A stretch of 63,687 nucleotides of DNA, the filler included, from Dehalococcoidia bacterium (lineage in GTDB: Bacteria > Chloroflexota > Dehalococcoidia > DSTF01 > JACRBR01): NCBI GenBank assembly GCA_041494685.1. It is 3 parts of 3 records of this genome, joined end to end, with 100 filler letters (N's around TTAATTAATTAA, not from the genome) between each part and the next. Parts side by side here need not be neighbours in the genome. Positions count along the whole stretch, not along the records: positions 24,315 to 48,037 come from JBGQBE010000052.1; 2 more parts are not named here. One strand, 5' to 3'. The stretch's first letter is position 1. Every line of letters begins with the position of its first letter. The position numbers and the translations under genes are program-made. Below the pieces are notes generated by a model, which was given only the letters and a program-made list of their open reading frames with translations, made no database searches and had not been told where the DNA came from. Shown here in pieces: positions 136-59,910 of this stretch.

Positions 136-167
136 GCACCCGACGCGCGAGGTTCACCGGACCACAC

Positions 168-196
168 AGAGGGGCGGCCGCCACGGCCGCCCCTCT
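168..196 (+). terminator. GC-rich hairpin after first archaellin
   Basis: AGAGGGGCGGCCG-CCA-CGGCCGCCCCTCT inverted repeat; no U-tract. Confidence 0.5.
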
Positions 197-353
197 CGCT
201 GTCCGTGGCGTTGCCGGAAACAGCCGTATAGGGGTTCCCGCCGGCGCGGCTGCGGCGCTCCCCGCCTGCGCAGGGACAGGGCCGGGTTCCGACGATCCGC
301 CATAGACCGCTGCGGGCGGCCGGACGAACACACCCAGGGATGGGGGAGCGTGT

Positions 354-944
354 GTGATGAATGGACTCATCTTCCTGTCGCGCCGTGCGCGCGACGAACG
401 GGGCATCACCGGCCTGGAGACCGCGATCGTGCTGATCGCCTTTGTAGTGGTGGCCGCGGTATTCGCGTTCGTCGTGCTCTCCACCGGCCTCTTCAGCTCC
501 GAACGGGGCAAGGAGACCATCTTCGCCGGCCTGGCGAAGACCCGTGGTTCGATGGAGCTGACGGGCAGCATAATGGCCACCTCCAACCAGACGAAGATCA
601 CGGCCGTTACGTTTGACCTGACGCTGACGGCCGGTGGCGCGCCGGTGAGTCTGGACTCGACGGCGACGGCGAACAAGACGATCATCAGCTTCCACGACGG
701 ACAGTACGACGTGAACAGCGTCAGCTACACGGCCACGGCGATCACCGGCAACGGTGACTCCGCGCTAGAAGCCGGCGAGCTGATGGAGATCACGCTGGAC
801 CTGACGACCGGCAACATGGCGACGGTGGCCGTGGGAGCGAACGCCGTGTTCACCATCGAGATCAAGCCGCCGCAGGGCTCGTACATGGTGATCCAGCGCA
901 CGACGCCGCCGTCGATCGCGCACACACTCATCAACCTGAACTAG
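354..944 (+). CDS. arlB: Archaellin
   Basis: Class III signal peptide RDERG/ITGLETAIVLIAFVVVAAVFAF; archaellin-type GDSALEAGE and FTIEIKPPQGS motifs. Confidence 0.92.
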   Translation: MMNGLIFLSRRARDERGITGLETAIVLIAFVVVAAVFAFVVLSTGLFSSERGKETIFAGLAKTRGSMELTGSIMATSNQTKITAVTFDLTLTAGGAPVSLDSTATANKTIISFHDGQYDVNSVSYTATAITGNGDSALEAGELMEITLDLTTGNMATVAVGANAVFTIEIKPPQGSYMVIQRTTPPSIAHTLINLN

Positions 945-1364
945 CCGCCTGCCCGGGGCGGCGCCCAGTTTTCGCGGGAACACCGGGTCGGACGGCGCGG
1001 CGTGCGACGCCATGACGTCCGCCGTACGCGGCGATTGGGCCGGGCCGAGCGGCGGAGGCGAAGAAGTGCGGCAGTTCCCCGATACGCGGGAAGGGCTCAG
1101 ATCACGAAGCTTCTCACGGTGCATGGATGTACCGCCAGGTAAACGGCAGGGATCGTCGCAACTCTGGTCCCCCGGCCAGCCCCGACGGGCGCAAAGGGGG
1201 GTGGCCGGGCAGCAAGGGAGTGCGCGACCAAGCCTGAGCGAACGAACGAACTAGACCCAGGCCAACGCGCAGCGCGAAGGAGGTGTCGGACCGCCACAAT
1301 AGAAGAGCCCCTGTTCTCCCAGAGAGATCTGGGGCACCCAGCGATTCACGAGGAGGAATACGCA

Positions 1365-1952
1365 ATGAAGCGAATCATGAGGTTCGCACGTCGCACCGCT
1401 GAGGAGCGGGGCATCACGGGTCTGGAAACCGCCATCGTTCTTATCGCGTTCGTCGTCGTCGCGGCGGTGTTCGCCTTCGTCGTCTTGAGCACCGGTCTCT
1501 TCAGCTCCGAGCGGGGCAAGGAGACGGTGTACGCGGGTCTCGCGAAGACCCGTGGCTCGATGGAGCTGACCGGCGGCGTCATCGCCAAGGGCAACACGAC
1601 GAAGCTGAACACCATCATCTTCGACCTGACGCTGGCCGCCGGCGGCGACCAGGTCAACCTGGACGGGGCGGGCGCGACCAACCGCACGGTGATCAGCTAC
1701 GCCGACACCAACATCAACGCAAACGACGTCTCCTACACGACGACCGTGATCACGGGCAACAGCGACAAGCTGCTGGAGCAGGGTGAGCTGTTCGAGATCA
1801 GCATCGACCTGACGCAGACCGCCCTGAGCGCGGTCACCCTGACGACCAACACGACCTTCACGCTCGAAGTGAAGCCGCCGTCCGGTTCGTACATGGTGAT
1901 CCAGCGGACGACGCCCGCATCGATCAACAAGAGCGTCATCGACCTGAACTAA
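1365..1952 (+). CDS. arlB: Archaellin
   Basis: EERG/ITGLETAIVLIAFVVVAAVFAF N-terminus, DKLLEQGE motif, SD GAGGAGG upstream. Confidence 0.93.
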   Translation: MKRIMRFARRTAEERGITGLETAIVLIAFVVVAAVFAFVVLSTGLFSSERGKETVYAGLAKTRGSMELTGGVIAKGNTTKLNTIIFDLTLAAGGDQVNLDGAGATNRTVISYADTNINANDVSYTTTVITGNSDKLLEQGELFEISIDLTQTALSAVTLTTNTTFTLEVKPPSGSYMVIQRTTPASINKSVIDLN

Positions 1953-2001: not shown

Positions 2002-2029
2002 CGCCTATCCCTCGAAAGGCAGGAGTGCC

Positions 2030-2734
2030 GTGGAACCGCAGCAGCTGGCAACAAAGGTCGCACAGCTCGAGTCACGAGTCGCCTCTCTTGAAGACGAAGG
2101 GAAGATCGTCAAGGGCGAGGTGAAGCAGATCCTGACCGAGATCCGCACCGCGATCCTCGTGCGGGACAACCCGTTCGAAGTTGACGGCATGCCTGCGCGT
2201 TCGCACGTGGCTTCGGTCGTCACGAACACCGCCACCACCGAGCGGATCTCCGCCGCGCCTGCGCCGGAGGCGGTGCAGCCCAAGCCGCAGCCGGCCCGCC
2301 CGCCAGAACCTGAGCCGGAGCCCGAACCCGAGCCCGAGATGGAGCTTGAGCCGGAACCCTACCCGGAGCCCGCCAAGGAGCCTGTCATGTTGAGGCCTCA
2401 ACACGCGCCGCCCGTACCGCCGCCGGCACCGGCGCCGGAACCGCAGCAGCCGCAGTGGACGCTGCTGACCATCGCCGGCCTGTCGGCCTGGGCGGAGGAA
2501 GCAATGCGGCGCCTGGGTTCGCTGCGACTCGAGATACTGTTGGACCTTTGCGAGACGGCAGGGCACCTGACGCCGGAAGCGCGCACAGCCCTGGCACGCG
2601 TGACGGAGCTGGATATCGCGGAGCCGGAGCACGCGCCTTCGACCAACGAGACAGTCGTCATCCTCCGGCAGCTGGATGCGCTGGTGAACGACGACGAGGA
2701 GTACGGCGCTCTCCGGATGCAGCGCCGGGTCTGA
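2030..2734 (+). CDS. Putative fused ArlC/D/E-like archaellum switch protein
   Basis: N-terminal coiled coil ending in NPF (ArlC-like), Pro/Glu linker, C-terminal W..EAMRRLG..RLEILLDLCETAGHL segment resembling ArlD/E; lies between arlB and arlG. Confidence 0.6.
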   Translation: MEPQQLATKVAQLESRVASLEDEGKIVKGEVKQILTEIRTAILVRDNPFEVDGMPARSHVASVVTNTATTERISAAPAPEAVQPKPQPARPPEPEPEPEPEPEMELEPEPYPEPAKEPVMLRPQHAPPVPPPAPAPEPQQPQWTLLTIAGLSAWAEEAMRRLGSLRLEILLDLCETAGHLTPEARTALARVTELDIAEPEHAPSTNETVVILRQLDALVNDDEEYGALRMQRRV

Positions 2735-24214: not shown

Positions 24215-24314
24215 NNNNNNNNNNNNNNNNNNNNNNNNNNNNNNNNNNNNNNNNNNNNTTAATTAATTAANNNNNNNNNNNNNNNNNNNNNNNNNNNNNN
24301 NNNNNNNNNNNNNN
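24215..24314. other. Artificial contig spacer
   Basis: N runs flanking TTAATTAATTAA (stops in all six frames). Confidence 0.97.
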
Positions 24315-24862
24315 AGGTGCTGCATGTGCCACGGGTACCACGCGATGCGCTGCGCCTTCGCCAGCGTGCCCGGCACGTGCCGCAGCCCGTTCGCCAGGTC
24401 CACGTCGAGCGGGTGATGCACGTTCGCCACCACGGCCCGCCCCACGACGGAGCGCATCAGCAGGACGCCGTAGCTCAGCGTCTGGTTGTCGTGCACGATG
24501 TCGAACGCCCCGCCCTCGGCCTCCAGCCGCTTCAGCTCGTGCAGCGCCCGCATCGCGAACACGTTGATCAGCGACGAGAACGTCAGCCGCGTCGTCGCGA
24601 ACTCGAAGAAGTTCACCGGGTGCAGATGCGTCAGCGGCGGGCGCTTGCCGAAGTACCCCACGCGGTCCATCAGCATCGACTGGAAGCTGTGCGTCACCAG
24701 CCGGTGGTGGCGCACGGCCGGGTCCAGGGCAGGGTACGGTGGCCCCGAGATCACGTGCACCTCGTGGCCCAGCCGCGACAGCTCGCGCGTCACGTTGGCC
24801 AGGTACACGCCCTGCCCGCCCGACTCCATCGAGCCGTGGTACATCAGGAAACAGACGCGAAT
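24315..24862 (-). CDS. GT4 glycosyltransferase, N-terminal part (probable ATT start; cut by gap)
   Basis: RVCFLMY..GGQGVY, GHEVHVISGPPYP, FDIVHDNQ; SD GGAGGT 6 nt before ATT; own -10 TATAGT. Confidence 0.8.
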
Positions 24863-24980
24863 CGCGGCACCTCCGCCCGTCCAAACACGCGGACTATAGC
24901 GGATGCCGATCCCGGACGAGCCGCCGGGCACGCGAGCGTAGCGGACCGGGATGAGCGCGAGAAATCGCGGGCAACGAAAC

Positions 24981-25108
24981 GCCCCGAGTAACCTCGCTGC
25001 CGGCCCGGTTTCATCCTCCCCCGGTTCCTCGGTTCTGCAAGGACTTTCGCCCTCGCCTACTACGTCTCTCCGGGTTCGTCCGCCGGGCCGCGCTTAACTA
25101 CTCGGGAC
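24981..25108 (-). ncRNA. Candidate 128-nt structured ncRNA, family unassigned
   Basis: Starts 7 nt after a consensus promoter; 5' and 3' ends pair; nested stems with G-U pairs favour the minus strand; GAAA tetraloop. Confidence 0.7.
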
Positions 25109-25115
25109 AAGAGCT

Positions 25116-25144
25116 ACGTTATCAGCAGCCCGGAAGGCTGTCAA
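25116..25144 (-). promoter_or_regulatory. Sigma-70-type promoter of candidate ncRNA
   Basis: TTGACA-N17-TAACGT with TGn extended -10. Confidence 0.75.
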
Positions 25145-25320
25145 TCGCGTTATGACGACATCGCGATTGATCTTTTCGCATAACGCGGCGCCACCTATCG
25201 ACAGTTGACCGATCCGCCCCGTTATGCCGAGCAGGCGCGAGGCGCACTCGCTCCGCGACAACGTTGACCACTGGACAACCCGCTTCTAGCAGGTACTATG
25301 GAGATAGGATCGGAGGCATC

Positions 25321-25737: not shown

Positions 25738-26826
25738 GTGAAGAAGATCCGTTTCGACCGCGCCGACGGCCGCTACCTCTACTGGTACGCGTTCGACGCC
25801 CCGCCGCCGCAGCTGCTCCACGCCGGCGAGCAGGAGCGCGGCCGCGACCAGATCGAACTCCGCTGGAACGCCCTCCTCGGCGAGCAGGTGATCGTCTCCA
25901 CCGGCCGCCAGGCCCGCACCTTCCTCCCCCCCGACGAGCACTGCCCCCTCTGCCCCACCGCCGCCGCCGGCGCGTTCGCCACCGAGATCCCCTCCGCCGA
26001 CTACGAGATCGCCGTCTTCGAGAACCGCTTCCCCAGCTTCCGCCCCGACGCACCCACCGTCGCCGACGATTCGCCGCTGGAGCGCCGCACGCAAGCGCTC
26101 GGTGCCTGCGAGGTGATCGTCTACGCGCCCCAGCATGACGCCGCGCTCGGCTCGCTCACCGAGCGCCAGGTGCGGAACCTCATCGACGTCTGGGCGGACC
26201 GCTACGACGAGCTGTCCGCGCGGCCCGACGTCGCCTACGTCTTCATCTTCGAGAACCGCGGCAAGGAGATCGGCGTCACGCTGACGCACCCCCACGGCCA
26301 GATCTACGCCTTCCCGTTCATCCCGCCGCACGTCGAGCAGGAGCAGCGCGCCGCCGCCGACCACCACGCCCGCACCGGCCGCTGCGTCGTCTGCGACGCC
26401 GTCGCCGCCGAGGTGGCGGACGGGCGCCGCATCGTCGCCGAGGACGAGGGCTTCGTCGCCTACGTGCCGTTCGCCGCGCGCATGCCGTACGAGGTGCACG
26501 TCGCGCCCGTGGCGCACCGCCCGTCGCTGCGCGAGCTCAGCCCCGGCCAGCGCGCCCGCCTCGCCCGCCTGCTCCGCACCGTCCAGCAGAAGTACGACAA
26601 CCTCTGGGGTTTCCCGATGCCCTACACCATGTCGATGCACCAGCGCGCCGCCGACGGCGTCCCCCGTCCCGGCGAGCACCTGCACATCGAGTTCCTGCCG
26701 CCGTACCGCACGCGGGACAAGCTCAAGTACCTCGCCGGCGTCGAGACCGGCGCCGGCACCTTCATCAACGACACCGCGCCCGAAGAGAAGGCGCGCGAGC
26801 TGCGCGAGGCCTCGCCACGGACGTAG
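25738..26826 (+). CDS. galT: Galactose-1-phosphate uridylyltransferase
   Basis: CPLCP, FENRFP, FENRGKEIGVTLTHPHGQIY, KYLAGVE. Confidence 0.92.
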   Translation: MKKIRFDRADGRYLYWYAFDAPPPQLLHAGEQERGRDQIELRWNALLGEQVIVSTGRQARTFLPPDEHCPLCPTAAAGAFATEIPSADYEIAVFENRFPSFRPDAPTVADDSPLERRTQALGACEVIVYAPQHDAALGSLTERQVRNLIDVWADRYDELSARPDVAYVFIFENRGKEIGVTLTHPHGQIYAFPFIPPHVEQEQRAAADHHARTGRCVVCDAVAAEVADGRRIVAEDEGFVAYVPFAARMPYEVHVAPVAHRPSLRELSPGQRARLARLLRTVQQKYDNLWGFPMPYTMSMHQRAADGVPRPGEHLHIEFLPPYRTRDKLKYLAGVETGAGTFINDTAPEEKARELREASPRT

Positions 26827-26846: not shown

Positions 26847-28010
26847 GTGCAGGCGCTCGTCAGCGCGTTCCGGCGCGAGTTCGGCCGCGCGCCCGACGGC
26901 ATCTCCGAGGCGCCCGGCCGCGTCAATCTGATCGGCGAGCACGTCGACTACAACGACGGCCTCGTGCTCCCGTTTGCGATCGATCGCAGCGTGCTGTGCG
27001 CGTGGGCGGCGCGCAACGACGGCGTGGTCCGTGCGTATTCGGCCGACTACGCGGAGCACGCGCGCTTCAGCCAGCCGGACGTGGCGCACTTCGGGAGCGG
27101 CGCGTGGGCGCCGTACGTCCGGGGCGTCATGGCCGCGCTGGCCGGCGCCGGCCATTCATTCTGCGGTGCGGACATCGCGATCGCGGGCGACGTGCCGCAG
27201 GGCGCCGGGCTCTCCTCGTCCGCCGCGCTCGAAGTCGCCGTCGCCGGCGCGTTCCGCGACGCGTGCGGCCTGCCGCTCGACGACATCGCGCTCGCGCAGC
27301 TCTGCCAGCGCGCCGAGAATGACTACGTCGGCGTCCAGTGCGGCATCATGGACCAGTTCGCGTCCACGCTCTCGCGCCGCGACCACGCGCTGCTCATCGA
27401 CTGCCGCTCTCTCGCCTACGAACACATCCCCCTGCGCCTCGAAGCCGCCGGCCTCGCCGTCGTCGTCGCCAACAGCGCCGCCAGCCGCACCCTCGCCGGC
27501 AGCGCCTACAACGAGCGCCGCCGCGAGTGCGAGGCCGCCGTCGCCGCACTGCGCGAGCGGCTCGGCCGCGACGACCTCCGCTCGCTGCGCGACGTCCGCA
27601 TCGCCGAGATCGTCGACCTCGACGTCACGTACGCTCCACCGCTCCGCCGCGCCCGCCACGTCGTCTCCGAGATCGCCCGCGTCGCCGCCGCAGTCGCCGC
27701 GCTCGCGGCAGACGACTTCGCCCGCGTCGGCGCGCTCATGCAGGAGTCCCACCTCAGCCTCCGCAACGACTACGAGGTCAGCAGCCGCGAGCTGGACCTG
27801 CTCGTCGGCCTCGCCACCGCACAGGACTACGTGCTCGGCGCACGCCTCACCGGCGCCGGATTCGGCGGATGCACCGTCAACCTCCTCCGCGCCGACGCCG
27901 TCGAAGCCTTCGAGCGTGACGTCATCGCCCCCTACCGCCAGCGCACCGGCCTCCCCGCCCAGCTCTACCTCACCCCGCCCCACGACGGCCTCCGCACCTG
28001 GCGCCTATAG
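26847..28010 (+). CDS. galK: Galactokinase
   Basis: APGRVNLIGEHVDYN, GAGLSSSAA, CGIMDQ, GARLTGAGFGG. Confidence 0.93.
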   Translation: MQALVSAFRREFGRAPDGISEAPGRVNLIGEHVDYNDGLVLPFAIDRSVLCAWAARNDGVVRAYSADYAEHARFSQPDVAHFGSGAWAPYVRGVMAALAGAGHSFCGADIAIAGDVPQGAGLSSSAALEVAVAGAFRDACGLPLDDIALAQLCQRAENDYVGVQCGIMDQFASTLSRRDHALLIDCRSLAYEHIPLRLEAAGLAVVVANSAASRTLAGSAYNERRRECEAAVAALRERLGRDDLRSLRDVRIAEIVDLDVTYAPPLRRARHVVSEIARVAAAVAALAADDFARVGALMQESHLSLRNDYEVSSRELDLLVGLATAQDYVLGARLTGAGFGGCTVNLLRADAVEAFERDVIAPYRQRTGLPAQLYLTPPHDGLRTWRL

Positions 28011-28036
28011 CGCGGCGCCCTCCGCAAGCCGTGCGT

Positions 28037-28200
28037 TGCCTGCTGTCTGTTGTCTGTTGTCTGCTGTCCACCTCTGCTGTTTGCCGTTTGCTGTTTGCTG
28101 TCTCTCGTCTGCTGTCTCCTGTTTGCTATCTCCCGTCTGCTGCGTCCCGCCCGCCGTCTCCCGCCTGCCGTCTATTGCCTGCTGTCTGCTGTCTGTTGTC
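28037..28200 (+). repeat. Degenerate heptamer tandem repeats (TGCTGTC/TGTTGTC/TGCCGTT)
   Basis: Visible 7-nt periodicity between galK and dapL. Confidence 0.75.
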
Positions 28201-35671: not shown

Positions 35672-35752
35672 GGTCGGCGGCCCGGCTTTCCGCCTGCCTG
35701 GCGGACCCGTGGCTTTGCGTCCTCGCCTCGCGGCGAGTTTGCCCGTTCGTAA
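35672..35752 (-). promoter_or_regulatory. c-di-GMP-I (GEMM) riboswitch
   Basis: GGGCAAACTCGCC-GCGA-GGCGAGGACGCAAAGCCACGGGTC...AGCCGGGCCGCCGA matches the class I consensus. Confidence 0.9.
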
Positions 35753-35959
35753 CCTCTGGACGAACTCACTCCGCCCTCCTGGCCGCGCCTCGTCCACCGC
35801 ATCGTGCAGTACGCTCGACAACCCATAACGCGGCTCATCGCCGTTTGTTACAGGTCCGGACGGGAGAATTTCCGACCCTCCCGCCACAACGAGCCACACC
35901 GGCCACAATTTGTGATGTCAACAACACTGGAAAAACACGCGCCCAGGATGCATACTCTG

Positions 35960-45352: not shown

Positions 45353-45613
45353 GCTGCGCCCCCGACCCCCGGCAAGCCACCACCGCCCTCGCCGACGGAG
45401 AAGCCCCTCCGCTGCCGTCGTGGCTGCGAAGGGGCTTCTCGATCGATCGTGCTACGCGAGCCGCGCCGCCTAGAGCCCCGCGGCGATCTTCTTCGCGGCC
45501 GCCAGGACTGCATCCGCGTTCACGCCCGTCGCCGAGACCGCCAGCGCGATCTGCATGTTGCCCTTGAGGAACACCACCGTCACCGCGTCGGCGTCCTTCG
45601 TCTGGAAGCCCCC
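45353..45613. repeat. About 260-270 bp imperfect direct repeat, copy 1
   Basis: Matches 46246..46515: tRNA promoter -35 segment, hairpin and lipoprotein 3' end. Confidence 0.85.
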
Positions 45614-46245: not shown

Positions 46246-46515
46246 CTGCGCCCCCGATCCCCGGGCAAGCCACATGCCGCCCCGCCCGTCCGTCTCGACG
46301 GAGAAGCGCCTCCACTGCCATGTGGCCGCGAAGGGGCTCCTCGATCGATCGTGCTACGCGAACCGCGCGGCCTAGAGCCCGGCGGCGATCTTCTTCGCGG
46401 CCGCCAGGACTGCATCCGCGTTCACGCCCGTCGCCGAGACCGACAGCGCGATCTGCATGTTGCCCTTGAGGAACACCACCGTCACCGCGTCGGCGTCCGT
46501 CGTCTGGAAGCCCCC
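46246..46515. repeat. Direct repeat copy 2, containing a 3' remnant of the lipoprotein gene (46372..46515)
   Basis: GGFQT.DADAVTVVFLKGNMQIAL.VSATGVNADAVLAAAKKIAAGL duplicated without its N-terminus. Confidence 0.85.
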
Positions 46516-48037: not shown

Positions 48038-48137
48038 NNNNNNNNNNNNNNNNNNNNNNNNNNNNNNNNNNNNNNNNNNNNTTAATTAATTAANNNNNNN
48101 NNNNNNNNNNNNNNNNNNNNNNNNNNNNNNNNNNNNN
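48038..48137. other. Artificial contig spacer
   Basis: N runs with TTAATTAATTAA. Confidence 0.97.
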
Positions 48138-49060
48138 ACGCCCGCGGCGGCGAGCACCGCGAGGCCGAGCGCACGGCGTGTCGTGGCGTCGCGCATGATC
48201 GTGCTCGCGACGAGGGGGCGCGCGCCGGCGGCTTCGACGCGGCCCGCGTCCGCCGCGTCCGACTCGTCGATGACGAGCGCGTCGATCAGGCCGGCGTAGA
48301 CGCGAGCGACGCCCGCCACGTCGACAGGGAAGCCGAGGCCGCGCAGCATCTCCGCGGCGGGCGGCTGGAGCGAGCACCCGCCGACGATCGGGCTGACGGC
48401 GACGCGGGGCACCCTCGTCGCGGCGATCGCGTCGCGGACGCCGGGTATGGCGAGGATGGGGCCGATGCTGCCGATCGGGTTGCTGGGCGCGATGACGATC
48501 GCCTCGGAGTTGGCGATGGCGTCGAGCACGCCCGGGGCGGGCCGTGCGGCGTCCGCGCCGTCGAAGCGGATCTGCGTCACGTTGTCGGGGGCATGGCGGT
48601 GCACCAGATACTCCTGGAAGGGAAGTTCTTCGCCGCCGGAGGTGACGATCGTGCGGACGCGGCCGTCGCTCATCGGCAGCAGCCGCACGCCGACACCGAA
48701 GGCGCGCGCGATGTCCGCCGTGATCTCGCTGAGCGGCACGCCCTCGCCGAGCAGGCGCGTGCGGTGGAGGTGGGTCGCCAGGTCGCGGTCGCCGATCTGG
48801 AACCAGGTGTCGTGACCGAAGCGCTCTAGCGATTCGAGCCAGCGGAAGGTGTCGCCGCGGAGGCCCCAGCCGCGTTGCTCGTCCACCTCGCCCGCGAGCG
48901 CGTAGGTGATGATGTCGGGGTCGGGCGAGACGTAGAGGCCGTGGAACCAGTCGTCGTCGCCGGTGTTGACGATGGCCGTGATGCGCTCGGCCGATAGCAC
49001 GGCCGACAGCGCGCGGAGCAGGCGCGATCCTCCGACGCCGCCGCAGAGCACCGTGATCAT
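48138..49060 (-). CDS. cofD: 2-phospho-L-lactate transferase (F420 biosynthesis), 3' end cut by gap
   Basis: LCGGVGG, VNTGDD, SPDPD, WFQIGDRDLATH, APSNP..SIGPIL, VSPIVGG. Confidence 0.92.
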
Positions 49061-59785: not shown

Positions 59786-59910
59786 CACAGCAAACGGCCG
59801 GCGACAGCAGACAACAGACAGCAGACAACAGAGGGGGGCCGGCGCCGCGCGGGGGTAGGTGACGGCAAACAGCAAACGGCAAGCAGCAAAGGGCAGGCGA
59901 ACGGCAACCG
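59786..59910 (-). repeat. Heptamer tandem repeats, same family as 28037..28200
   Basis: GACAGCA/GACAACA/AACGGCA units on plus strand. Confidence 0.7.

Follow-up and report, generated by a model that had tools for sequence, protein, structure and literature searches.

6S RNA (ssrS, RF00013) is a stand-alone, strongly promoted RNA that forms a rod with paired ends and a conserved loop near its middle, all features that it shares with the RNA described here. Known 6S RNAs are 150 to 200 nt long. Subsurface, marine, and dechlorinating communities contain abundant Dehalococcoidia, although few of these bacteria have been cultured, and to our knowledge RNA regulators from this class are almost unknown. 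An RNA-seq study of Dehalococcoides mccartyi CBDB1 published in 2026 describes sRNA1, a 187-nt RNA encoded between tRNA-Arg and hpt (PMC12961961). According to the available part of that report, sRNA1 is the third most abundant transcript, has no Rfam match, and is described with its own sigma-70 promoter and a hairpin-like fold. It also bears short antisense transcripts, which its authors read as product RNAs, and they propose it as a putative 6S RNA (PMC12961961). Dehalococcoides is also included, as the accessible portion of the article indicates, in a survey of 50 genomes from the Breaker laboratory (PMC11109978).

Here, we present a 128-nt structured RNA gene from a Dehalococcoidia bacterium. 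The gene lies on the minus strand at 25108..24981 of the window (the whole stretch of DNA that was analyzed, 63,687 nt including filler), and comparative evidence supports its being real and separately transcribed. The window comprises three contigs joined by N-runs around TTAATTAATTAA, at 24215–24314 and 48038–48138, and the RNA is located 670 bases into the middle contig. Because of the contig junction, the S1 and Clp (N-domain protein) genes to the left of 24315 are not true neighbors of the RNA.

The predicted promoter of this RNA appears to be strong and of the sigma-70 type, with a perfect −35 hexamer (TTGACA; 25139..25144, minus strand), which is also present in distant family members, and a TG-extended −10 element (TGaTAACGT; 25116..25124, minus strand), which reads TATCGT in most relatives. 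Within the latter, TAACGT occupies 25121–25116 and TG occupies 25124–25123, leaving a spacer of 17 nt to the −35 hexamer. The preliminary description called this a consensus promoter. That wording suits the −35 hexamer, which matches at 6/6 positions, but not TAACGT, which matches TATAAT at only 3/6. A simple promoter scanner run on the window did not list the promoter, and a terminator scanner listed nothing at the RNA; both calls therefore rest on comparative conservation. Across the window and 30 relatives, TTGAC[AGT] is found at −34 to −37 in 30/31 sequences and TAnnnT at −12/−13, likewise in 30/31. Just 5′ of the −35 hexamer, at about −42 to −52 (25145–25160, minus strand), there is an A-rich block, which in many relatives takes one of two conserved forms before TTGACA, CATAACGnGA or CGnAACCGA. 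This block could serve as an UP-like element or as a binding site for a regulator.

The predicted +1, G25108, is the first base of the closing helix and lies seven bases past the extended −10. The start proposed in the preliminary description is supported by blastn, in which homology to relatives begins exactly at that base. The 3′ end of the closing helix is 24981, the final C of UUACUCGGGGC, which gives the length of 128 nt, and the sequence directly past it is GTTTCGTT. The T-rich tract after the helix (GTTTCGTTGCCCGC; 24967..24980, minus strand) is weaker in the window than in most relatives, with 5 T in 14 nt, compared with at least 6 T in the 14 nt past the helix in 23/31 sequences. The closing helix and this tract likely act as an intrinsic terminator.

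The minimum free energy (MFE) fold of the RNA with small flanks (138 nt) is a single rod of −65.2 kcal/mol. Dinucleotide shuffles of the same 138-nt stretch average −50.6 kcal/mol (sd 3.8; z = −3.83), and none of 200 was equally stable. Every helix listed previously is present, including the terminal helix opening at G25108, which extends to 13 pairs. This closing helix, P1, pairs GUCCCGAGUAGUU (25096..25108, minus strand) with GGUUACUCGGGGC (24981..24993, minus strand), as supported by the fold, the alignment, and covariation. P2 pairs GGCCCGG (25083..25089, minus strand) with CCGGGCC (25002–25008), and P3 pairs CCCGG (25070..25074, minus strand) with CCGGG (25020–25024). Between P2 and P3 is an internal loop formed by CGGACGAA (25075..25082, minus strand) and GGAGGAUGAAA (25009..25019, minus strand), the first of which contains a GGAC.A motif that is invariant or nearly so among 31 sequences. 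The remaining apical domain (25025..25069, minus strand) is variable and, in the MFE fold, consists of an AGUAG/AGAA loop and a GCGAGGGC-GAAA-GUCCUUGC hairpin, with the GAAA tetraloop at 25045–25048 on the minus strand. A coding reading, based on ORFs of 56 and 55 amino acids that overlap the RNA, is not supported: relatives have ACG in place of the AUG of the first ORF, and indel lengths are not divisible by three.

Homologues of the RNA are widespread in the same order. Full-length matches occur in the genomes that carry the closest relatives of the downstream glycosyltransferase, at sites elsewhere in those genomes (G003, G004, and G005; E = 5.5e-34 to 1.6e-20), and G001 has a diverged match. 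When blastn was run with a flanked query, three alignments opened exactly at the counterpart of G25108 and extended to about 24977. An alignment that takes in the flanks shows conservation of the T-tract and of both promoter elements (−35 and extended −10), in contrast to a divergent spacer and divergent flanks. In the order to which G004 belongs, 39/92 genomes have a blastn match to the RNA, and 57/92 have an end-to-end match to a covariance model, R1; the RNA is single-copy in all of the latter, except that G003 has an additional truncated copy. The unpublished genome G029 is counted in these tallies. Among the 35 genomes without an R1 match are incomplete assemblies as well as the order's most distant portion. 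We aligned 31 sequences with MAFFT (alignment A2, which leaves out the G029 copy and the truncated G003 copy); in this alignment the RNA is 117 to 140 nt long.

Homologue search and covariation analysis support a conserved structure. In A2, 91.9% of cells are paired, and 20/34 pairs have changed on both sides, compared with 7.8 ± 1.8 in shuffles (0/500 had as many) and with 5 to 9 pairs in controls where the 3′ partners were slid by 1 to 3 columns. P1 has 96.3% of its cells paired, with both-side changes in 5 pairs. Both-side changes were also found in 4/6 pairs of P2 (helix 3 of the covariation test) and in 4/5 pairs of P3 (helix 5), which is 97.4% paired. Promoter, RNA, and terminator are independently conserved, the helices covary, and carrier genomes of the order have one copy each. 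The best explanation is a stand-alone small-RNA gene.

Several elements are constant throughout the order: the closing helix, an adjacent AA/GA or GA/AA step, P2, P3 (CCCGG/CCGGG), and the loop between P2 and P3. This 8 × 11-nt loop has the consensus YGGACGAA / GGAGGAYGAAR and holds two kept pairs, G:Y (GU in 19 sequences, GC in 11, and AU in 1) and C:G (30/31). The apical third varies in length and sequence between relatives. Not all of the structural motifs first proposed are retained here. A kink-turn has a C-stem, a 3-nt bulge, and then tandem sheared G.A pairs on the bulged strand; by inspection, this pattern fits no register of the central loop, so that the kink-turn-like reading first suggested for GAUGAA/GGA is not supported. 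An AGUA-hairpin-GAA arrangement is found in about half of the sequences (19/31 by a loose regular expression, about 15 of them at the apical site); the window copy, AGUAG...AGAA, is one base out of that register. The GNRA tetraloop was correctly identified; a GNRA loop is kept in 26/31 sequences.

The genes around the RNA differ between loci. In the window, the downstream neighbor is a GT4-type glycosyltransferase gene on the same strand (24315..24862, minus strand), which is cut by the contig end, lies 118 nt 3′ of the RNA and outside the element, and has a probable ATT start at 24862 after GGAGG. Upstream and divergent are galT (25738..26826, plus strand) and then galK (26847–28010). A GalT gene (PF01087/PF02744) is likewise divergent and upstream in 18/30 related loci of the order. 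The downstream gene could be named by Pfam in 25 loci, where it belongs to many families and is convergent with the RNA in 20/25. In 6/30 order loci, all among the more distant ones, the downstream gene is a convergent hpt (TIGR01203 above cut-off in 6/6 tested), which is not the case in the window.

Given the arrangement in the window, the RNA might be expected to act in cis, as a leader or riboswitch of the glycosyltransferase gene that follows it by 118 nt. The two share a strand, and the weak T-tract in the window means that some read-through into the gene is possible. Against this, we fetched 72 loci of glycosyltransferase relatives (50–84% identity) and found the RNA at 0/72 (best blastn E = 0.52; no nhmmer match); the upstream regions of these relatives are unrelated to each other. 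There is also no Rfam riboswitch match at the locus, and the downstream gene differs between loci and is mostly convergent. We therefore regard a leader as highly improbable, and independent transcription, as claimed in the preliminary description, agrees with the kept promoter and T-tract and with the varying downstream gene.

Two further features of this neighborhood were observed. In the glycosyltransferase orthologues (window 24862, minus strand; L001–L011 and L046), GGAGG is followed after 6 to 8 nt by ATC or ATT (CTG in one locus) and then by codons for (R/K)ICFLMYH, so that the ATC/ATT codon is about 18 nt before the ATG of MYH. Such a pattern points to conserved initiation at a non-canonical ATY codon. 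A short ORF from 25321 (plus strand), located between galT and the RNA promoter, could encode a hydrophobic peptide, MIHRIILAVVVALVVLAVLSVVFGIV...; in L074, the gap between RNA and galT is only ~180 nt and thus leaves no room for it.

Repeats are found elsewhere in the window. CTGTT/CTGCT-rich repeats (GTCTGTTGTCTGCTGTC-like) at 28010–28200 and 59803–59892 comprise direct copies as well as inverted copies, the latter ~31.7 kb apart and 91 to 93% complementary. Direct repeats with a period of 1008 nt and 75 to 95% identity occupy 1–1951, and a 194-nt pair (45420–45613 and 46322–46515; 96% identity) is spaced 902 nt apart.

The RNA falls outside known families, as had been claimed. With Rfam 15 at gathering scores, the whole window yields only a tRNA and a c-di-GMP-I riboswitch, both elsewhere; the riboswitch aptamer is at 35673–35753 (minus strand; 60.1 bits). 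At E ≤ 10, 24800–25300 returns nothing beyond a Guanidine-III match on the opposite strand, which we attribute to chance (E = 7.3). Searches at E ≤ 5 of 14 loci with family members return no match at the position of the RNA, and relaxed thresholds on 17 further loci return only unrelated matches (T-box, Moco, and noise). Two of these neighboring elements are close to family members: the T-box leader (L129, 1102–1397), encoded on the opposite strand, precedes one member by ~100 nt, and the Moco riboswitch (L127, 1814–1928) follows another by ~150 nt.

Two known RNA types of comparable size were rejected as identities. Bacterial small SRP RNA (RF00169) is likewise a hairpin of ~100–130 nt, capped by a GNRA loop and containing conserved internal loops, but in the 128-nt RNA it is the part near the cap that varies, and the conserved loop lies at a distance from it. 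There is no RF00169 match at the locus, and genuine full-length SRP RNA is encoded elsewhere in 5/5 related genomes (71–78 bits). Y RNA, the partner of Ro60 (Rsr), resembles the 128-nt RNA in size and in that its 5′ and 3′ ends pair into a closing helix of conserved sequence. Rfam gave no match to a Y RNA, and the TROVE/Ro60 domain (PF05731) was detected in 0/5 carrier genomes, with a positive Deinococcus control.

We find that the RNA belongs to a large, uncatalogued family across Dehalococcoidia. Among 151 genomes sampled from the class, R1 detects it in 15 and a second covariance model, R2, in 23; in a phylum sample, R2 detects it in 8/151 genomes. Distant members are mostly 110 to 179 nt long, although two measure only 73 and 84 nt. 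These members retain the TTGACA and TGnTAnnnT boxes, a 5′ GUCCCRAGUARYC, a 3′ GGUUACUYGGGRC, and a U-tract; between the conserved ends, a reorganized series of short helices and purine-rich loops makes up the interior. The closing helix is almost invariant across the family (GYCCCRAGU.../...ACUYGGGRC), with a tandem purine-purine step adjoining it, and P1 itself is nearly invariant in sequence throughout the class. Purine-rich internal loops and an apical hairpin with a cap are further characteristics of the family.

The gene hpt recurs as a neighbor in the wider family, being convergent beside the RNA in 20/44 distant loci and 7/10 others. In the hpt flanks of five small genomes, a family RNA is present and convergent in 3/5 and absent in 2, and no tRNA is found in any; the three genomes with the RNA had been missed at default search filters. 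A degenerate end-to-end pattern applied to metagenome contigs gave 5 loci, of which one or two are real members, with neither hpt nor a tRNA at any of the 5.

One family with genomes of 0.6 to 3.4 Mb stands out, in that R2 detects the RNA in 111/119 genomes at 1 to 6 copies. Its paralogues fall into size classes near 110, 140, and 158 nt, and thirteen paralogues in six loci are surrounded by mixed accessory genes with no common neighbor. This multi-copy family is not Dehalococcoides, since the 119 genomes carry at most one reductive dehalogenase gene each. On one contig (L177), three paralogues lie within 11 kb, and a 140-nt paralogue (2026–2166, minus strand) is convergent with a full-length sigma-70 (RpoD-type) gene (142–1611, plus strand).

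From the shared hpt neighbor and the description in the available part of the report alone, sRNA1 of D. mccartyi probably belongs to the same family as the 128-nt RNA (PMC12961961). Both are found beside hpt, and the longest hpt-linked member that we found is 179 nt, close to the 187 nt given for sRNA1. There are also differences: the BPROM boxes given there for sRNA1 (TTGCTG / TGGCATATT) are not the TTGACA / TGnTAnnnT of the family, and the tRNA-Arg neighbor reported for sRNA1 has no counterpart in any of the family loci examined. Used as a pattern on the 119 genomes, the reported sRNA1 boxes gave 11 matches, about chance level; four identical matches are antisense to a yidC-like coding region. 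The suggestion that the 128-nt RNA is possibly a new class thus needs qualifying: it is absent from Rfam, but a probable hpt-adjacent member has been reported in D. mccartyi, insofar as the available text describes it (PMC12961961).

Canonical 6S RNA is rare in these genomes. At the locus, RF00013 gives no match at gathering score or at E ≤ 10, and on 14 family loci none at E ≤ 5. In related genomes, the Rfam 6S model finds 0/5, and in the class sample it finds 4/151, 3 of them above cut-off. These four canonical 6S RNAs (L183–L186, in G161, G099, G133, and G136) score 43 to 81 bits, are mutually alike, and have a textbook 6S fold; they share CCUGCYGUG..CGUGA and ACACGRCAYRGCRGG ends, and none is beside hpt. 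A model built from them, R3, finds 0/40 genomes of the order, nothing in the window, 0/5 further carriers, and, in the class sample, only its four seeds. Thus, most of the class has no detectable canonical 6S RNA. Both a canonical 6S and a family RNA are present in the assemblies G099 (5.6 Mb) and G136, which either is a true pairing or reflects mixed bins.

Our preferred, though tentative, reading is that the 128-nt RNA is a stand-alone protein-binding RNA, most likely 6S-like, and that it may substitute for 6S RNA, which is otherwise apparently missing from these genomes. Transcription would start at or near G25108 from a strong sigma-70-type promoter, and the 13-bp closing helix and U-tract would end the transcript near 24975, giving a rod-shaped RNA of ~130 nt. 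We infer that this RNA would act as an abundant protein-binding decoy; in the leading specific model, it would, like 6S, sequester RNA polymerase holoenzyme, and the invariant central loop (YGGACGAA / GGAGGAYGAAR) would be the section held open. The 128-nt RNA is single-copy in the order, in genomes without a detected canonical 6S. The preliminary description called the RNA short for 6S, and the 128-nt RNA is indeed shorter than the usual 150–200 nt. However, the available account of sRNA1 as a putative 6S means that short length does not dispose of a 6S-like role (PMC12961961). We consider 6S-like function the best single explanation, while placing its probability somewhat below even. Several features differ from 6S: the length is 128 nt (110–179 nt in the family); no covariance-model match appears even at E ≤ 10; no large open bubble is apparent, the conserved 8 × 11-nt loop containing two conserved Watson-Crick pairs; and one family has up to 6 paralogues per genome. 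MFE folds of the longer members likewise show many small purine-rich loops and no dominant bubble. Furthermore, the closing helix is conserved in sequence class-wide, a pattern that points to sequence-specific recognition by a partner and not to mimicry of nonspecific downstream DNA.

These differences give weight to other readings. The RNA could instead be part of a ribonucleoprotein unrelated to 6S, in which a protein recognizes the closing helix and the tandem purine pairs; we see this as possible, if doubtful. Recognition of the invariant closing helix by such a partner ranks almost level with a 6S-like role. In such a particle, the purine-rich loops (GGA/GAA-rich) might bind or titrate further protein copies, making the RNA a sponge or scaffold, which we likewise hold to be possible but short of probable. 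GC-rich and GC-poor lineages alike retain the sequence of the closing helix and the AA/GA step despite a changing interior, the purine-rich loops are repeated in longer members, and canonical 6S co-occurs in 2 assemblies. The expansion of paralogues to 1–6 copies in three size classes also accords with what is known for sponge RNAs. Against a ribonucleoprotein of this kind, no RNA-binding-protein gene is a conserved neighbor, Ro/TROVE is found in 0/5 genomes, and CsrA is found in 0/6 multi-copy carriers (G203 and five more). CsrB/RsmZ-type sponges do share with this family several GGA-containing purine-rich sites and the formation of paralogue families, and in this order specifically the RNA might titrate CsrA, the facing GGACGA and AGGAUGA of the central loop binding a CsrA dimer. 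AGGAUG resembles the CsrA SELEX consensus, and CsrA genes are present in 4/4 tested genomes of the order, with 2 to 3 matches each. Unlike those sponges, however, the GGA motifs here are in an internal loop of the rod rather than in hairpin loops, there are two sites only, and the wider family thrives without CsrA; we therefore consider CsrA titration improbable. A trans-acting base-pairing sRNA, for example one that regulates the neighboring gal operon, is also quite unlikely. Spot 42 regulates the gal operon in Escherichia coli, and the divergent galT-galK linkage is seen in the window and 18/30 loci, but the conserved bases of the RNA are nearly all in the rod or in structured loops, leaving no conserved single-stranded seed, and elsewhere in the class the conserved neighbor is hpt, not gal. 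What may be weighed against a 6S-like role is chiefly that the RNA is the subunit or decoy of a new Dehalococcoidia-wide ribonucleoprotein other than 6S, with up to six paralogues of three fixed sizes in the small-genome lineages, a reading that we regard as plausible without favoring it.

Our results define an RNA family that annotation pipelines currently miss, and describe it by a pair of covariance models, a signature for its promoter, and linkage to hpt and galT. The family spans 57/92 genomes of one order and 111/119 genomes of another family. If it is the 6S RNA of this lineage, then the 6S architecture would extend to a much shorter, sequence-conserved rod, and this would explain why canonical 6S goes undetected in most of the class. 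Otherwise, the family would be a new and widespread ribonucleoprotein RNA. D. mccartyi is culturable and has existing RNA-seq data, so that either outcome is directly testable there. Should the ribonucleoprotein reading be true, the family would add a new housekeeping RNA class to a phylum in which RNA biology has scarcely been explored.
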